A stretch of DNA of 64,000 bases from Candidatus Omnitrophota bacterium. GTDB lineage: Bacteria > Omnitrophota > Gorgyraeia > Duberdicusellales > 4484-171. This document shows, piece by piece, positions 2,362 to 45,293 of this stretch (position 1 is its first letter; every line of letters starts with the position of its first letter). Made by a program: the position numbers and the translations under genes. The notes beneath the pieces are model-generated. The model was given only the letters and a program-made list of their open reading frames with translations, was not told the DNA's origin and searched no databases. The stretch covers positions 14,956 through 78,955 of the forward strand of contig JBDRDJ010000004.1 of NCBI GenBank assembly GCA_043820815.1, read 5' to 3'.

Positions 2362-3000
2362 ATGAAAGTATTAGATTATAATTTGGATTACAATAAGGTT
2401 AAGAACCTTTATTGGAATAAAGAACATACTATTAAAGATATTGCTGAAAAACTTAATGTTTCTATTTGGTCTTTGTATGGTTTTATGAATAGAAATAATA
2501 TTCCTCGGAGATCGTCATCCGAAGTTAACTATATAGTAAACAAGGGGAAGCCTCAATTTGAAGTCAAAAAACACCTTAATCACCAAGAGCAAATTCTGAA
2601 AATAGCAGGAATAATGCTTTATTGGGCGGAAGGAACCCTAAAGGGAACGTTTGTTGATTTTGCAAATAGTAATCCGAAGATAATGTGTATTTTCTTGAAT
2701 TTTTTAAGAGATATTTGCGGGGTTAAGGAACAACGGTTAAGGGTTTATCTTTATGCTTATTCTTATCAGAATATCGATGCCTTAAAGAGGTATTGGAGCA
2801 AGGTAACAAATATACCTGTAAATCAATTCACTAAACCGTACATAAGAGAAGGGAATTTAAATATCAGCAAAAGAAAATTACCTTTCGGTTTAATACATGT
2901 ACGGTATAATGATAAACGGTTGCTTGAATTGATAAGTTCTTGGATAGAAGAGTATGCAAATCGGGTAGGTGGCGGAGTGGCCAATCGCACCAGACTGTAA
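2362..3000 (+). CDS. HTH-containing protein, possible LAGLIDADG-like (homing) endonuclease
   Basis: 212-aa ORF between two tRNA genes; N-terminal HTH-like IKDIAEKLNVSIWSLYGFMNRNNI; core IAGIMLYWAEGTLKG...FANSNPKIMCIFLNFL recalls LAGLIDADG-like families (from memory, no HMM run); last 38 nt overlap the tRNA-Tyr 5' exon. Confidence 0.35.
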   Translation: MKVLDYNLDYNKVKNLYWNKEHTIKDIAEKLNVSIWSLYGFMNRNNIPRRSSSEVNYIVNKGKPQFEVKKHLNHQEQILKIAGIMLYWAEGTLKGTFVDFANSNPKIMCIFLNFLRDICGVKEQRLRVYLYAYSYQNIDALKRYWSKVTNIPVNQFTKPYIREGNLNISKRKLPFGLIHVRYNDKRLLELISSWIEEYANRVGGGVANRTRL

Positions 3001-3276
3001 AATTTGCAGCGTCTCGCCGAAAGGCGGGATGGAAAAGTGGGTGAATTCAGGGAAACCCTTTACTTTTACAATGTAAAGGGCAATCCTGAGCCAAGCCTTT
3101 GGCATTATTAATGCCATCGGAAGGTGCAGAGACTAAGTACCCACCGCCTAAGGCCTGAGTCAGCTTTAATCTAAATCAGGCTATGGTGATGAGATAGTCC
3201 AAGCCTTGAGGTAACTTGAGGGCACTTGAAATCTGGCGGACATCGTCCTTCGGAGGTTCGAATCCTCCCCTGCCCA
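2963..3276 (+). tRNA. tRNA-Tyr(GTA) interrupted by a group I intron
   Basis: 5' exon 2963-2998 (acceptor GGGTAGG, D-arm, anticodon stem CCAGA + CTGT). 3' exon 3229-3276 (AAA + TCTGG, long variable arm CGGACATCGTCCTTC, T-arm GGAGG-TTCGAAT-CCTCC, acceptor CCTGCCC + A). Joined exons give loop CT-GTA-AA. Confidence 0.85.
2999..3228 (+). ncRNA. Group I (IC3-like) self-splicing intron in the tRNA-Tyr anticodon loop
   Basis: 230 nt; preceded by exon U and ends in G. Exon CUGU can pair with intron GCAG (3006-3009), giving a U.G at the splice site. Strings TCAGGGAAACC, GGCAATCCTGAGCCAAGCC, CGGAAGGTGCAGAGACTA, ACCCACCGCCTAAGGC, GCTATGG and AGTCCAAGCC match the conserved core of Anabaena tRNA-Leu / Azoarcus tRNA-Ile introns as I recall them. 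Confidence 0.85.
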
Positions 3277-3297
3277 TTTTCTTTCGTTCAGCGGAAT

Positions 3298-3368
3298 GCG
3301 GGCGTAGTTCAGTGGTAGAACACAGGCCTTCCAAGCCTGTTATGTCGGTTCGATCCCGATCGCCCGCT
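3298..3368 (+). tRNA. tRNA-Gly(TCC)
   Basis: Acceptor GCGGGCG/CGCCCGC, anticodon stem CAGGC/GCCTG, loop CT-TCC-AA, T-loop TTCGATC. Confidence 0.85.
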
Positions 3369-4919: not shown

Positions 4920-5051
4920 GATATTTGATAAGGTTTTTAAGTAAATATTTATGCTTTTATAAGATCTCTCGCTTCGCTCGAGATCAATTCGGCTATGTCA
5001 TTTCTCTTCACCTTCGGTTTGAGAAATGACGGCCTCATTGAAGGAGGTAAT

Positions 5052-7901: not shown

Positions 7902-8011
7902 AAATCGTCCGGTCGCCTGTATATCGGGAAAATTTTTTCAATATTTTCCCGAAGCGGCTCGGACATAATTCGTCCCGACGTTACGTCGGGACTCATTTAG
8001 GAGGTAAGTTT

Positions 8012-13235: not shown

Positions 13236-13317
13236 TGTTGATTGAAAGGTTTTATTTTTTAAGCAGGGTTGAGGGTTGATAGAAAGTGTATAAGTCACGT
13301 GCTCATTGAAAGATTAA

Positions 13318-13426
13318 CCTGAATAAGATACTTCGCCCGCCTGTGGCGGACTCAGTATCAATTCGCACAGCGGTTTATGTTCGCTCATTTCATTCACTCC
13401 ATAAACCGCGTGCTCATTGAAGGAGG
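13318..13426 (+). promoter_or_regulatory. Repeated two-hairpin 5' leader, copy A (ends in the RBS of the PilZ gene)
   Basis: AACCTgaATAAGATACTTCGcCCGCCTGTGGCGGACTCAGTATCAATTCG-[hairpin]-CTCATTGAAGGAGG; near-identical to 20148-20257. Confidence 0.7.
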
Positions 13427-13437
13427 TATGGTTAGAT

Positions 13438-13794
13438 ATGGGTGAAAAGTTTATGGGACATGAGAGGAGAAGACATTCGCGCTTGATAGCAAGTTTTGTA
13501 GTCAGCTACCGGATAAAAGAAATTCCCAACAATAGTGATTTAACCCAGACAAAGAATGTAGGCCAGGGGGGGTTGTTGTTAACAACCAATAAAAAGTTTG
13601 ATAAAGGAACCCTCCTGGCGGTTACGATCCGTTTCCCATTTGCTCCTCAAAAGATTGAGCTGACCGGAAGAGTAATTGAATCAAAGGAAGTAGCCAGAGA
13701 CTTAATCTATGAAACAAGAATGTGTTTTCTTGATTCGGATGAAGATTTCTTCCGCCAATTAGGTAAATTTGTCGAAACCCGTCTGAAAAGATGA
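13438..13794 (+). CDS. PilZ domain protein (c-di-GMP receptor family)
   Basis: RRRHSR (RxxxR) and NVGQGGLLL (D/NxSxxG-like) motifs; first in-frame ATG after the GAAGGAGG RBS. Confidence 0.7.
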   Translation: MGEKFMGHERRRHSRLIASFVVSYRIKEIPNNSDLTQTKNVGQGGLLLTTNKKFDKGTLLAVTIRFPFAPQKIELTGRVIESKEVARDLIYETRMCFLDSDEDFFRQLGKFVETRLKR

Positions 13795-19870: not shown

Positions 19871-20132
19871 TTGACATGAAGTTTTTAATGTGTTATTGAT
19901 TATGTGTAGTTCTTTTACAAGATGGTTAATAGCGATAAAGGCAAACTTCACGAAAGTGAAGGGCGGCACAAAAGGGTTTATAAGAAAACCTTTTGTGCCA
20001 CCGTATTCCCGTTTAAAAGCGGGATTTACGGAGCAAAGCTAAGAGAACCTAAGGTCAATTAGGCTATGGTAGTCAGCTGCCGCAATGTATATAACTTTTT
20101 TAGAACCCATAGCTTTTGCTATGGGTTTTTTT
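19871..20132 (+). ncRNA. Candidate structured RNA (riboswitch-like leader or sRNA) with its own promoter and terminator
   Basis: TTGACA 19871-19876, 17-nt spacer, TGtTATTGA extended -10. GAAA-tetraloop hairpin TTCAC-GAAA-GTGAA, a 15-bp hairpin GGCACAAAAGG…CCTTTTGTGCC, and hairpin CCGTA..CCCG…CGGG..TACGG. Terminator at 20104-20132; class not identified. Confidence 0.45.
20104..20132 (+). terminator. Rho-independent terminator
   Basis: AACCCATAGC-tttt-GCTATGGGTT followed by a T-run; upstream GCTATGG (20063-20069) could compete as an antiterminator. Confidence 0.7.
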
Positions 20133-20147
20133 ATTTGAGGGCAAATG

Positions 20148-20257
20148 ACCTAAATAAGATACTTCGTCCGCCTGTGGCGGACTCAGTATCAATTCGCACA
20201 GCGGCTTATGTTCGCTCATTTCATTCGCTCCATAAACCGCGTGCTCATTGAAGGAGG
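20148..20257 (+). promoter_or_regulatory. Repeated two-hairpin 5' leader, copy B
   Basis: Same element as 13318-13426 (a few substitutions); GAAGGAGG lies 6 nt before ATG 20264. Confidence 0.7.
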
Positions 20258-20263
20258 TGAGTT

Positions 20264-20605
20264 ATGGCTAAGAAGTTCGTGGTTTTAGTATGCAGTGCGC
20301 TTATGCTCATTACGGCATCGACCGCTTATTGCGTTAACCACAGCCCCGTAACAAAATTCGGAAGAGGCGTTGTTAACGGAGCTACTTGCTGGATTGAGGT
20401 TCCGAAGCAAATTTATCTTACATCTTTAGAGTATGATCCTTTAGTCGGGATAACTTTCGGCGCGGTTAAAGGGTCTTGCTATGCAGTATTGCGTGCAGCA
20501 TCGGCTGGCTATGATACTGCATTCTTTTTGCTTCCGCCCTATGATAAAGCGGTCTTGATGCCGGAATTTGTATTTGAGGGATGGGAAGTAGAGCAGCAGT
20601 ATTAG
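20264..20605 (+). CDS. Small secreted protein, resembles the exosortase-associated TIGR04073 family
   Basis: Signal peptide; KFGRGVVNGATCWIEVPKQI … GAVKGSCYAVLRAASAGYDTAFFLLPPY recalls TIGR04073 (from memory). Confidence 0.5.
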   Translation: MAKKFVVLVCSALMLITASTAYCVNHSPVTKFGRGVVNGATCWIEVPKQIYLTSLEYDPLVGITFGAVKGSCYAVLRAASAGYDTAFFLLPPYDKAVLMPEFVFEGWEVEQQY

Positions 20606-23741: not shown

Positions 23742-23847
23742 AACAAGAGTATTATAGCAGATATATTTAAAAACATATATCGAAAGATTATTAGCCAATA
23801 TCGCGGCAATAAAGAACCGAGGGTCGTTATCGCGGCAGTTAATTTCC

Positions 23848-23890
23848 AAACATAACATTAGAATCGACGACCGTTCATTCTAATGTTATA
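23848..23890 (+). promoter_or_regulatory. Palindromic promoter/operator cassette, copy 1
   Basis: AACATTAGAAT-cgacgaccgttc-ATTCTAATGTT; loop holds a -35-like TCGACG. The 3' arm runs into TGtTATAAT (TATAAT 23887-23892), 6 nt before GTG 23899. Confidence 0.55.
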
Positions 23891-23898
23891 ATAGAATT

Positions 23899-24723
23899 GT
23901 GAGCAAAAAGTTAAATAAAATTTTATACGGCGGTAAGAAAATCGTGGAGCGGACACTTTCCGATTTTATTGACAGTTTTTTGTTTCTTCTTTATTTTTCC
24001 ACGCCACCATACACGACAAAGGTGCTGAGCGTCTTCGCACCTGAATTTAAAACATCAAATTTGAATATGCAAATAAGCAGGCTTTATAAAAAAGGGTATA
24101 TTTCTAAAATTAGAAAAGGGAAAAGCGTATTCGTTTCGCTCGTTGAAAACTTCTGGAAGATTAAAGAGAATTCTATCGAAGAAAAAAATAATAAACATAA
24201 AAAGAAATGGGATAAGAAATGGCGCCTGCTTATTTATGATATTCCGGAGGAGAAAAAGAGGCGAAGAAATAGGCTACGAAGATACATTAAAGATTTAGGG
24301 TATGGTAAGGTTCAAGATAGCTGCTGGGTATCGTGTTATGATTTTGGGGATCAGCTTTATAGATTTGCGCGGCAAGAAAATATCCTGGATTACCTCTGTA
24401 TTTATGAAGGAAAATTTTTTATTGGAAAGAAGATTGATGATATGGTTGAGGAAATTTGGCAGTTAAAAAAATTGCATAAAAGATATGATGAGTTAATTAA
24501 AAATTGCTCTGAAGCTATAGAGACAGTAAGGACAAGAGATGCCGAAGCTAGCCAATGGTATAGTCTTTACTATTATCTTTATAAGGATTACATTGCTATT
24601 CTAAAAGATGATCCGTGTCTTCCCGTTGAGTTTTTAAAAGGCCGGTCACGCCATAATGCAGAAAGCATATTTAAAAAATTTGTTAGCTGCATCTCTAAAG
24701 AATTAAAGGGCTTTCAGCCATAA
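23899..24723 (+). CDS. PaaX-family transcriptional regulator-like protein
   Basis: WDKKWRLLIYDIPEEKKRRRNRLRRYIKDLGYGKVQDSCWVS matches the PaaX central motif; GTG start with no SD (possibly leaderless). Confidence 0.55.
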   Translation: MSKKLNKILYGGKKIVERTLSDFIDSFLFLLYFSTPPYTTKVLSVFAPEFKTSNLNMQISRLYKKGYISKIRKGKSVFVSLVENFWKIKENSIEEKNNKHKKKWDKKWRLLIYDIPEEKKRRRNRLRRYIKDLGYGKVQDSCWVSCYDFGDQLYRFARQENILDYLCIYEGKFFIGKKIDDMVEEIWQLKKLHKRYDELIKNCSEAIETVRTRDAEASQWYSLYYYLYKDYIAILKDDPCLPVEFLKGRSRHNAESIFKKFVSCISKELKGFQP

Positions 24724-24746
24724 AATTAAAACAATTTTCCTAATTC

Positions 24747-24793
24747 AAACATAACGTTAGAATCGACGACCGTTCATTCTAATGTTATGTTTG
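24747..24793 (+). promoter_or_regulatory. Palindromic promoter/operator cassette, copy 2
   Basis: CAAACATAACGTTAGAAT-cgacgaccgttc-ATTCTAATGTTATGTTTG; ~40 nt identical to copy 1, 57 nt upstream of the SGNH hydrolase gene. Confidence 0.55.
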
Positions 24794-24849
24794 AAGTGGC
24801 TATGGCGGCGGTTTTAGAAATATTTTTGTTAAAAAAATTTAAATTTTAA

Positions 24850-33050: not shown

Positions 33051-33158
33051 TAACCTTTATAAGATACTTCGTCCGCCTGCTGCGGACTCAGTATCAATTC
33101 GGCCTTATGACTTATGAAAATCAAAGATTTTTATAAGTCATGGCCTCATTGAAGGAGG
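33051..33158 (+). promoter_or_regulatory. Repeated two-hairpin 5' leader, copy C (between cpaB and the secretin)
   Basis: Conserved flanks identical to copies A/B; second hairpin replaced by the unrelated stem GGCCTTATGACTTATGAAAATC/GATTTTTATAAGTCATGGCC; GAAGGAGG 6 nt before TTG 33165. Confidence 0.7.
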
Positions 33159-44381: not shown

Positions 44382-44502
44382 ATATCAAAAATCAAAAATT
44401 AAATATCAAAATGACAATGTAAAAATAAAATTTTTAAGATTGAGTCTAAACATTTTAAATTTTAATTTGTAATTTTGATTTTTGATATTTGATTTTTAAT
44501 TT
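44382..44502. repeat. AT-rich inverted-repeat element without cargo
   Basis: Left arm ATATCAAAAATCAAAA… pairs with right arm …TTTTGATTTTTGATAT. Right arm TTTTAATTTGTAATTTTGATTTTTGATATTTGATTTTT is ~40/43 identical to 45228-45270. Confidence 0.55.
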
Positions 44503-44517
44503 AAAATCGGAGGATAA

Positions 44518-44778
44518 ATGAAAAAGATAAGCTCACAAAGTTTACTTGAATCAGTCTTGGCATTTGCCGCGGCAACGGCGATAATAGGAGCGGCAATGGG
44601 TATTTTCGGCTGGGGCATTGCCCATATTCCCGCACGCCAGGCAACTTATGAGGCAACCCGCGTATTAGCCGGAAGGTCGCGGGGGCGCAATGTCGATGAG
44701 AGAGGCGCTCATGGCGGCGCATACGCAGTCCCGGTTTGGCCGACATACTCAACCGGCGCCGGATTGGCAGCCTACTGA
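44518..44778 (+). CDS. Pilin-like small protein (l)
   Basis: GGAGG RBS; MKKISS-QSLLES-VLAFAAATAIIGAAMGIFGW; GC-richer tail. Confidence 0.45.
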   Translation: MKKISSQSLLESVLAFAAATAIIGAAMGIFGWGIAHIPARQATYEATRVLAGRSRGRNVDERGAHGGAYAVPVWPTYSTGAGLAAY

Positions 44779-44787
44779 CAGGTTATT

Positions 44788-44838
44788 TTAAATTAAAAAT
44801 CAAAAATTAAAATGTAAAATGAAATATTAAAATTTAAA
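44788..44838. repeat. Left AT-rich inverted repeat of the four-helix-bundle cassette
   Basis: AAATCAAAAATTAAAATGTAAAA is the reverse complement of parts of 45220-45270. Confidence 0.5.
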
Positions 44839-45219
44839 ATGGATAAATACGGAATAGACAAAGAAAAATTTAAAACAGAATTTAAAAACAGGCTTTATAA
44901 ATTTGCCCTTAAAATTATTGAATTTATTGATAAATTGCCTAGCGATAATGTTTCAAGAAGGCTTGGAGATCAATTATTGCGAAGCGGAACAAGCATATTA
45001 GGAAATTACATTGAAGGACAATCTGCAAGCAGTAAAAAATATTTTATAAATTTTTTCAACCATTCATTAAAATCAGCAAATGAAAGCAAAATATGGCTTA
45101 TGCTTTTAGGCGATAGTAAACGTGCAACTAATGAGAACGTAAGCCCTTTTTTAAGTGAATTAGATGAAATTGCAAAGATTTTTGCTTCAAGCATCCTTAC
45201 GCTTAAAGGAAAACGCTAA
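44839..45219 (+). CDS. Four-helix-bundle protein (TIGR02436; the family formerly called 23S rRNA intervening-sequence protein)
   Basis: FALKIIEFIDKLP…LGDQLLRSGTSILGNYIEGQSASSKKYFINFFNHSLKSANES matches the family pattern. Confidence 0.8.
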   Translation: MDKYGIDKEKFKTEFKNRLYKFALKIIEFIDKLPSDNVSRRLGDQLLRSGTSILGNYIEGQSASSKKYFINFFNHSLKSANESKIWLMLLGDSKRATNENVSPFLSELDEIAKIFASSILTLKGKR

Positions 45220-45270
45220 TTTTTACATTTTAATTTGTCATTTTGATTTTTGATATTTAATTTTTGATTT
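45220..45270. repeat. Right AT-rich inverted repeat of the four-helix-bundle cassette
   Basis: TTTTTACATTTTAATTTGTCATTTTGATTTTTGATATTTAATTTTTGATTT. Confidence 0.5.
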
Positions 45271-45293
45271 ATTTCAATATCAGGAGGCAAAAC

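Follow-up and report, generated by a model that had tools for sequence, protein, structure and literature searches.

A two-hairpin element that ends in a Shine-Dalgarno sequence recurs just upstream of start codons in a 64,000-nt stretch of a Candidatus Omnitrophota genome (NCBI GenBank assembly GCA_043820815.1, contig JBDRDJ010000004.1, positions 14,956 to 78,955 of the forward strand), which was analysed as a whole and is called the window here. Judging from sequence comparison, the copy in front of a PilZ gene (copy A) is probably a left-truncated copy, without its nuclease gene, in an Omnitrophota-wide family of modular palindromic mobile elements of the MITE (miniature inverted-repeat transposable element) or REPIN type, the complete form of which carries a GIY-YIG gene; the shorter versions would be copies that lost that gene. 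An earlier note, made from the letters of the window alone, had offered a mobile untranslated-region (UTR) cassette as one of two explanations, and this one is supported by at least 114 matching stretches elsewhere, nearly all in Omnitrophota and upstream of unrelated genes, by an inverted left module and a nuclease gene in full-length relatives, by a swap of the central hairpin H1, and by the patchy occupancy of orthologous positions.

Copies of the element in the window

The 43-nt core ATAAGATACTTCGYCCGCCTGNNGCGGACTCAGTATCAATTCG has three exact matches in the window, at 13323, 20154 and 33059 (+ strand only; none in 100 shuffles), and the 3′ motif CTCATTGAAGGAGG has four, at 5034, 13413, 20244 and 33145 (0.4 expected). 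For the three core-bearing copies A, B and C the description in the earlier note was accurate: the core, the 3′ motif and the start codons all lie where it had placed them, with the Shine-Dalgarno 6-11 nt before the start codon (ATG 13438 stands 11 nt past GGAGG, ATG 20264 and TTG 33165 each 6 nt), and hairpins 1 and 2 with their TC/TC internal loops are present in each. Two further copies had been missed, namely copy D (4955-5047), upstream of a HAMP-domain protein gene, which came from a repeat search and from the 3′-motif search, and copy E (7907-8004), a diverged covariance-model match (TAATTCG...CTCATTTAGGAGG) upstream of a NifX-like open reading frame (ORF), which brings the total to five copies in 64 kb. 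In the window copies the left part is reduced to a stub (AACCTGAATAAGAT; in copy B AAATGA-CCTAAATAAGAT), followed by H1 and the right module. The parts of the five copies are as follows, R1 being the covariance model of the right module.

Copy A, 13289..13312, + strand: apparent remnant of the 3′ half of another module (TATAAGTCACGTGCTCATTGAAAG), resembling by eye the module consensus ..CATAAGT....GTGCTCATTGAAGGAG; no covariance-model score
Copy A, 13316..13329, + strand: left inner junction stub (AACCTGAATAAGAT), homologous to G.CTGAATTTGACCC of full-length elements; left module hairpin absent
Copy A, 13327..13359, + strand: central hairpin H1 (GATACT-TC-GCCCGCC..GGCGGAC-TC-AGTATC), in the position of the GIY-YIG ORF of full-length relatives
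Copy A, 13359..13419, + strand: right terminal module (CAAT-TC-G[stem]C-TC-ATTG); R1 65.6 bits, E 2.8e-13
Copy A, 13420..13426, + strand: Shine-Dalgarno AAGGAGG; PilZ gene start codon at 13438
Copy B, 20143..20160, + strand: stub of the left end, in which AAATGA (the left-end consensus in full-length elements) is joined to CCTAAATAAGAT
Copy B, 20158..20190, + strand: central hairpin H1
Copy B, 20190..20250, + strand: right terminal module; R1 62.5 bits, E 1.5e-12
Copy B, 20251..20257, + strand: Shine-Dalgarno AAGGAGG; ATG 20264 opens a 113-aa ORF with no Pfam match
Copy C, 33052..33065, + strand: left inner stub (AACCTTTATAAGAT), 10 nt past the TGA stop of rcpC/cpaB
Copy C, 33063..33095, + strand: central hairpin H1
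Copy C, 33095..33151, + strand: right terminal module, stem sequence unlike A and B; R1 71.0 bits, E 1.5e-14
Copy C, 33152..33158, + strand: Shine-Dalgarno AAGGAGG; TTG 33165 is the start of the Tad secretin (Secretin and TonB_C domains)
Copy D, 4955..4985, + strand: stub TTTTATAAGAT and short central hairpin GATCTC-TC-GC.ttc.GC-TC-GAGATC
Copy D, 4985..5047, + strand: right terminal module and AAGGAGG; ATG 5052 starts a HAMP-domain membrane protein (Pfam); R1 70.1 bits, E 2.6e-14
Copy E, 7907..7964, + strand: composite central hairpin (GTCCGGTCGC...GCGGCTCGGAC; inner hairpin CGGGAAAAT..ATTTTCCCG)
Copy E, 7966..8004, + strand: short right module TAAT-TC-G TCCCGACGT.ACGTCGGGA C-TC-ATTT and AGGAGG; ATG 8012 starts a NifX/NifB-like ORF (Pfam); R1 20.1 bits, E 0.011

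Over 111 nt, copies A and B share 96% identity. H1 is common to A, B and C, and the right-module stem of C differs from that of A and B; the pattern is consistent with recent copying or gene conversion. In copy D hairpin 1 is shorter and carries the compensating change GATACT/AGTATC to GATCTC/GAGATC, with the TC/TC loop kept, and the H1 type of copy E (..TCGAAAATTT..AAATTTTCTCG..) recurs in L014, L078 and L112 (L-numbers are labels of related loci). The suggestion of a decayed further copy just upstream of copy A stands in part, in that the resemblance to the 3′ half of the module consensus is plausible by eye, whereas the covariance model assigned it no score.

Additionally, in the region 19930-20137, a c-di-GMP-I riboswitch match (36.5 bits against a gathering score of 35, and 35.8 bits with the GGC variant model), followed by an intrinsic-terminator-like hairpin with a T run (20108-20137), lies directly upstream of copy B and of the 113-aa ORF (20264-20605), and copy B therefore stands between the expression platform and the presumably controlled gene.

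At the gathering threshold, Rfam 15 has no family that overlaps copies A-E in a scan of the whole window, and at E<=10, a search made for copies A, B and C, only chance-level miRNA, snoRNA and sRNA matches overlap or adjoin the element; for copies D and E the Rfam coverage is the gathering-threshold scan. We found no description of the element in the searchable literature on Omnitrophota repeats or RNA motifs, on GIY-YIG proteins with MITEs or palindromes, or on MITEs with a Shine-Dalgarno, which takes in the main Omnitrophota genomics paper and the 2024 review of prokaryotic MITEs. These palindromic and probably mobile DNA repeats thus form a family that had not been described before and that occurs all across Omnitrophota, an uncultured phylum.

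Full-length relatives enclose a GIY-YIG nuclease gene

The species-representative genome collection was scanned once with CAATTCG-N25-55-CTCATTGAAGGAG, and nearly all of the at least 114 matching stretches come from metagenome-assembled genomes (MAGs) or single-amplified genomes (SAGs) of Candidatus Omnitrophota. Among the matches listed are two complete genomes, Velamenicoccus archaeovorus LiM and CP070807, some third-party annotation (TPA) bins with a Planctomycetes label, and about eight matches in other taxa, which lack the hairpin and look like chance.

Full-length elements read, in order, left end (T)AAATGA, inverted module, G.CTGAATTTGA, hairpin H1, TT and forward module, and right end CTCATTGA, after which AAGGAGG follows directly and the host start codon 5-7 nt on. 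The left module is the right module inverted, which gives these relatives terminal inverted repeats with the ends TCAAATGA and TCATTGA and makes them inverted doublets of imperfect palindromes; the window copies are without the left module. The central H1 is a GC-rich hairpin that falls into recurrent families across MAGs (CCCTTGACAT.., CCCAGCACTAATTT.., CCCCGCCCTTTTGG.. and CCCCACACCCAG.., plus the window type ATAAGAT[AC]..). Copies without an ORF are small, non-coding and multi-copy, with a length of roughly 90 to 250 nt.

In L114, two elements within 8 kb each have an 80-aa ORF in the H1 loop, laid out as CCCAGCACTAATTT-tct-ATG ... TAG-TGCTGGG-TT-CAATTCG, and the 3′ arm of H1 contains the stop codon of the ORF. 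When every ORF of the loci was searched with a profile, nine of this kind came up, of which seven are intact or nearly so (two in L114, and one each in L028, L082, L105, L040 and L076), one is divergent (L035) and one shortened (L015); direct reading of the sequence added a pseudogene in L107. The ORFs match the Pfam family GIY-YIG (PF01541) with 43-62 bits, and none lies in the window. Their proteins, 77-107 aa long, consist of the catalytic domain only, with no additional DNA-binding domain, and have UPF0213 proteins and then SLX1 as their nearest solved structures, while the homing-endonuclease family TIGR01453 (group I intron endonuclease) gave 19 bits, below its cutoff of 56. No characterised function was found for small GIY-YIG proteins of the UPF0213/YhbQ type. 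Three H1 arm families enclose three different ORF subfamilies, and copies with the GIY-YIG ORF have the same left and right modules as copies without it.

Close homologues make up more than 100 clusters in the database, which, where named, are called 'GIY-YIG nuclease family protein [Candidatus Omnitrophota]'. One of these homologues has the same architecture in the 5′ UTR of a 2989-aa ORF, beside ORFs of ~20,000 aa; in the loci L119/L120 (1150-1880), the leader of a 2989-aa HEAT-repeat ORF, which has ORFs of 19,857-23,706 aa beside it, contains a GIY-YIG element in which a second H1 stands in tandem, and a sigma-70-like promoter (TTGACA-N17-TATACT) precedes that element. Outside Omnitrophota, more distant homologues of the small GIY-YIG protein in L115 (1443-1829, from a bin named WOR-3) and L117 (1387-1848, from an unclassified bacterium) are bracketed by GC-rich inverted or palindromic repeats, with no R1 modules, and the enclosure of small UPF0213-type GIY-YIG genes in palindromes may be a wider phenomenon.

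Exchange of H1 and patchy occupancy of orthologous sites

Between the orthologous loci L090 and L108 the flanks and both modules are ~95-100% identical, yet the H1 hairpins are unrelated, one being of the TTGACA type and the other of the GCCC type with an apparent ORF remnant; in L108, besides, a palindromic insertion of 51 nt is nested in the loop of the left hairpin. Orthologous genes with and without the element were found in several comparisons (L011 vs L103 and L008; L051 vs L069; L018 vs L054; L049 vs L029). In L051 the 11-nt GGAGGTTCTAA, which contains the stop codon of the upstream gene, stands on both sides of the element, and L042 and L083 have 8-nt locus-specific flanking repeats. 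About 10 of 46 elements have direct repeats, 6-11 nt long and variable in length, in which the Shine-Dalgarno is contained, and those of L051, L042 and L083 reach into locus-specific sequence; additionally, 6 of the 46 composite elements have GGAGG within the final 10 nt of their left flank. Such repeats are suggestive of a target-site duplication that takes in the Shine-Dalgarno.

Upstream of the element, columns 170-330 of the L090/L108 alignment (A4) contain a conserved promoter-like region (TTGACAAAATTAAAAAAAATGATATATTA) and a conserved ~100-nt leader with a terminator-like hairpin at its end (GCCAGGATTCGATTTTAGCTTTGCGGTTTTTT), perhaps an attenuator or a small RNA unrelated to the element.

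The swap of H1 bears on an alternative in which two parasites are nested. The module doublets would then be MITE- or REPIN-like units moved by an enzyme encoded elsewhere, for instance a Y1 transposase of the RAYT (REP-associated tyrosine transposase, REP being repetitive extragenic palindrome) or IS200-605 type, and the GIY-YIG gene with its H1 would belong to independent homing endonuclease genes that invade the module junction. H1, with or without its ORF, is exchanged while the flanking modules stay identical, many elements have modules but no ORF, three H1 families occur on one module type, and the GIY-YIG homologues of L115 and L117 have inverted repeats of their own. However, no transposase was seen near the elements in the loci examined, though none was specifically looked for, the DNA-binding domain that homing endonucleases typically have is missing from the GIY-YIG protein, and the 5′ GTAG, a REP hallmark, is absent. 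We hold this alternative to be possible rather than probable.

The element fills the gap between stop codon and Shine-Dalgarno

An ORF of at least 60 codons starts within 25 nt of 101 of the 111 Shine-Dalgarno-bearing covariance-model matches, with a peak of the GGAG-to-start spacing at 5-7 nt. The upstream gene is on the same strand in 74 of 100 elements, and in 13 of the 18 cases with a left module its stop codon lies -9 to +2 nt from the left boundary of the element. With a stop codon at its left boundary and a Shine-Dalgarno at its right, the element thus takes up the whole intercistronic space between stop codon and ribosome-binding site. Many copies are located inside operons, such as groES-groEL and rcpC-rcpA, and from this location, or in copy B from that between the riboswitch terminator and the ORF, it follows that the element must be transcribed there.

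Identified by their N-terminal peptides, the downstream genes include those of EF-Tu (MAKEKFER), L31 (MKDKIHP), GroEL right after GroES, IlvD, AroC, MutM and YebC, and these housekeeping genes together with the PilZ, secretin, HAMP and NifX-like genes form no functionally coherent set. The genes being unrelated, the idea of a surface or c-di-GMP regulon, which the earlier note had drawn from its three copies, was removed, and the sole link to c-di-GMP that was found is the separate riboswitch upstream of copy B.

The right module is a covarying palindrome with a DNA-level signature

Pairing in the right module was assessed with RNAalifold and pair counting on an alignment of 76 copies, the consensus of which is GGTT-CAAT-TC-G[stem]C-TC-ATTG-AAGGAGG; the basic unit of ~65 nt reads GGGT-YAAT-TC-G[15-bp stem, apical mini-hairpin]C-TC-ATTR. 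In this alignment 96.2% of the cells are paired, as against 28-35% with the partners slid, and double-change cells number 242 as against 69 in shuffles, the observed value being reached by none of 500 shuffles. The covariation check proposed along with the first description thus turned out strongly positive, and a DNA palindrome would give such a conserved, covarying secondary structure equally.

The covariance model R1, run on 100 loci (698 kb), gave 181 matches. In these the 4-bp basal helix covaries (CG 106, AT 25, TA 10, GC 2), with the variants AAGT/ACTT and TATT/AATA also found, as does the closing pair of the internal loop (GC 128, AT 15, CG 7), and the four loop positions are T, C, T and C in 146-150 of 150 sequences. 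Most copies (85 of 150) have another pyrimidine loop close to the apex, TTAYG-TY...TC-CRTAA. Many of the R1 matches are inverted copies of the module, which stand on the other strand at a distance of 20-110 nt upstream of a forward match.

A helix selected as RNA normally tolerates G·U far better than A·C. The stems of the forward modules are almost purely Watson-Crick, with 27 G·U and 22 A·C (3 and 4 in the inverted modules), so that the tolerance of G·U and avoidance of A·C by which a constraint on the transcribed strand is recognised was not found. In the inverted left modules TC/TC is retained on the strand of the module itself, and the mRNA would hence have GA/GA. The lack of a G·U excess and the retention of TC/TC in inverted modules argue against a constraint specific to the transcript, and these sequence patterns point to a DNA-level constraint and not to an RNA read on one strand.

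The same comparison weighs on an element selected by the host as RNA, in which the right module would be a generic intercistronic or 5′-UTR device, for Shine-Dalgarno presentation, for stabilisation of mRNA ends or as an RNase III/E/Y site, with a phylum-specific protein recognising UC/UC and the DNA palindromes being secondary. In favour of such a device are a right module that is always sense, with the Shine-Dalgarno immediately 3′ of the basal helix and at canonical spacing, the transcription of the many copies in operons and the position of copy B behind the riboswitch terminator, and strong covariation with invariant unpaired nucleotides and termini conserved across the phylum. However, the stems lack the G·U excess and the inverted left modules present GA/GA in the mRNA; orthologous genes are often without the element, the downstream genes have no common function and a nuclease gene is nested in the element; and the predicted accessibility of the Shine-Dalgarno is unremarkable (mean unpaired probability 0.54). 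We therefore consider a host-selected RNA unlikely, and the protein- or ligand-binding cis-regulatory RNA, which had been the other explanation offered at the outset, runs against the diversity of the downstream genes, the absence of G·U excess over A·C and the equal retention of the TC/TC loop in inverted copies. A ligand- or protein-sensing leader specific to c-di-GMP or surface-structure genes has very little probability left and is already contradicted: three of the five window copies do precede genes for a PilZ protein, the Tad secretin and a probable secreted protein (the last also under the c-di-GMP-I riboswitch), but more than 100 copies precede unrelated housekeeping genes, the other two window copies precede HAMP and NifX-like proteins, no Rfam family matches, and the conservation pattern is DNA-like.

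Several narrower readings of parts of the element were tried and rejected. The 5′ AACCU could pair as an anti-Shine-Dalgarno with GAAGGAGG in copies A, C and D, but other genomes read G.CTGAATTTGACCC there, which is the inner junction of the left module, and with the unremarkable unpaired probability of the Shine-Dalgarno the pairing was dismissed as a general feature. A leader peptide from the ATG of the left end AAATGAAG has neither frames nor stops conserved on manual translation, and the TTGACA of the commonest H1 family is not kept as a -35 box, as the length of the H1 loop is variable and the motif is missing from other H1 families. For GGGTTCAATTC, a tRNA-like or T-arm reading is not supported, given flanking stems that do not match a T-arm; an integron attC site is not supported either, with R′/R″ core sites absent and housekeeping genes as neighbours; and long-range pairing between the left and right hairpins fails since their stems differ in sequence within one element, so that each folds locally.

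Other features of the window

A complete group I intron (2982-3221, 88 bits), within the region 2966-3277, apparently interrupts the anticodon loop of a tRNA-Tyr(GUA)-like gene, with the apparent exons ..CCAGACTGTAAA and ..ATCTGGCGGACATCGTCCTTCGGAGGTTCGAATCCTCCCCTGCCCA on its two sides; the gene, which was not called by ARAGORN, lies between tRNA-Thr (2269-2342) and tRNA-Gly (3298-3368), and a 212-aa ORF with no Pfam match (2362-3000) runs into its 5′ exon. A 53-nt direct repeat, 91% identical between its copies at 23847-23899 and 24746-24798 and containing the inverted repeat AACATTAGAAT..ATTCTAATGTT, brackets a 274-aa ORF with PaaX central (Cas2-like) and PaaX C-terminal domains. An AT-rich family of 51-nt repeats (TTTTAAATTTTAATTTGTAATTTTGATTTTTGATATTTGATTTT...) is represented within 44418-45271 by two copies, at 44453 and at 45221, that are 92% identical, and the translation of the region between them resembles, by eye only, a four-helix-bundle protein.

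Discussion

Based on these findings, we regard the element as a probable member of a mobile family, and the known systems that it most resembles each differ from it in some respect. REPINs and bacterial interspersed mosaic elements (BIMEs), the REP doublets that go with RAYT, are likewise short imperfect palindromes arranged as inverted doublets and foldable into larger hairpins, with many intergenic copies per genome, persistence in a lineage, and conserved mismatches or bulges in covarying stems. However, the modules here are longer (~65 nt) and fixed at the junction from stop codon to Shine-Dalgarno instead of at the 3′ ends of genes or operons, and the gene is a GIY-YIG nuclease inside the doublet, whereas REPs flank a Y1 transposase; the 5′ GTAG of REP is absent from the module consensus, and RAYT genes were not searched for genome-wide. 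Correia, enterobacterial repetitive intergenic consensus (ERIC) and BOX elements, MITEs that affect expression when co-transcribed, are also small, structured and multi-copy, with terminal inverted repeats and often transcribed in operons, and BOX is modular as well, but the present family is phylum-wide and its stems covary rather than merely decay.

Mycobacterial interspersed repetitive units (MIRUs) are intercistronic too, and within operons they reach with their ends into the stop codon upstream and the translation start signals downstream, but they are tandem direct repeats with short ORFs rather than modules of palindromic hairpins and are not known to carry a nuclease gene. In PMC3049150 and PMC10969869, which review such co-transcribed MITEs, none is described as consistently abutting a Shine-Dalgarno, and the MITE review mentions neither the Shine-Dalgarno, nor the ribosome-binding site, nor GIY-YIG. 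Free-standing GIY-YIG homing endonuclease genes such as seg of phage T4 (PMC2988022) are small intergenic ORFs between conserved genes as well, vary in presence and absence and decay to pseudogenes; the ORF here is different in being a ~80-aa catalytic domain of the UPF0213/Slx1 type without a DNA-binding domain, and in lying in the hairpin of a repeated palindromic element with many sites in a cellular genome. The family departs in at least one defining feature from each of the REPINs/BIMEs, the MITEs and the homing endonuclease genes, with no GTAG or RAYT seen, a target-site duplication that is variable or uncertain, and a nuclease without a DNA-binding domain.

As to mechanism, the TC/TC hairpins could be recognised as DNA, in the form of an extruded hairpin, a cruciform or inverted half-sites, by the nuclease of the element or by another enzyme. 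The cassette of H1 and ORF would spread among existing copies by break-induced gene conversion, or homing, with the shared modules serving as homology arms, and occasional new insertions would take place at the junction of Shine-Dalgarno and start codon and duplicate it. A strong, correctly spaced Shine-Dalgarno left on the right side, together with co-transcription with the host operon, should keep the downstream gene translated, which would explain the tolerance of so many copies; the stable hairpins, inevitable in the mRNA, may have side effects on stability, processing or translation. In its fullest form our proposal is a tentative one, more speculative than the membership of the family: a minimal GIY-YIG nuclease of the Slx1/UPF0213 type might itself recognise the TC/TC hairpins or cruciforms and drive both homing, with hundreds of palindromic docking sites open to the cassette, and new insertions that are aimed at the junction of Shine-Dalgarno and start codon and duplicate the ribosome-binding site, the element bringing its own stop codon and Shine-Dalgarno and leaving operon expression undisturbed, and this would be a new class of bacterial mobile element.

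Several points weigh against the interpretation as a mobile family with its own nuclease. The scan pattern includes the Shine-Dalgarno, which biases the sample towards gene starts, and copies without a Shine-Dalgarno, although also found by the covariance model, are few. The phylum-wide conservation of the module termini and the ~90% productive orientation would also fit a host-selected function. The window has neither nuclease gene nor left module, and its copies may for that reason be inert relics. The evidence from flanking repeats is marginal, as a shared substring of 8 nt or more is seen in 4 of 46 elements, with 1.2 expected and a maximum of 4 in 200 permutations, and repeat lengths vary. 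Lastly, to our knowledge the GIY-YIG catalytic domain alone is not a bacterial transposase, and its action on these hairpins is putative.

For the specialist, the surprising features are the phylum-wide spread, the fixed Shine-Dalgarno position and the Slx1/UPF0213-like nuclease, and the case illustrates that strong covariation beside a Shine-Dalgarno is insufficient for calling a regulatory RNA. If the interpretation as a mobile family is true, an abundant, unannotated repeat supplies or duplicates the ribosome-binding site of many Omnitrophota genes, core genes included, and would matter for the calling of gene starts and of non-coding RNAs as well as for the assembly of MAGs. The small GIY-YIG proteins of the UPF0213/YhbQ type, which are widespread, would then also have a suggested role, namely as the nuclease of a selfish palindromic element, and insertion at the ribosome-binding site with expression preserved would be an unusual way for mobile DNA to avoid harm in compact operons.

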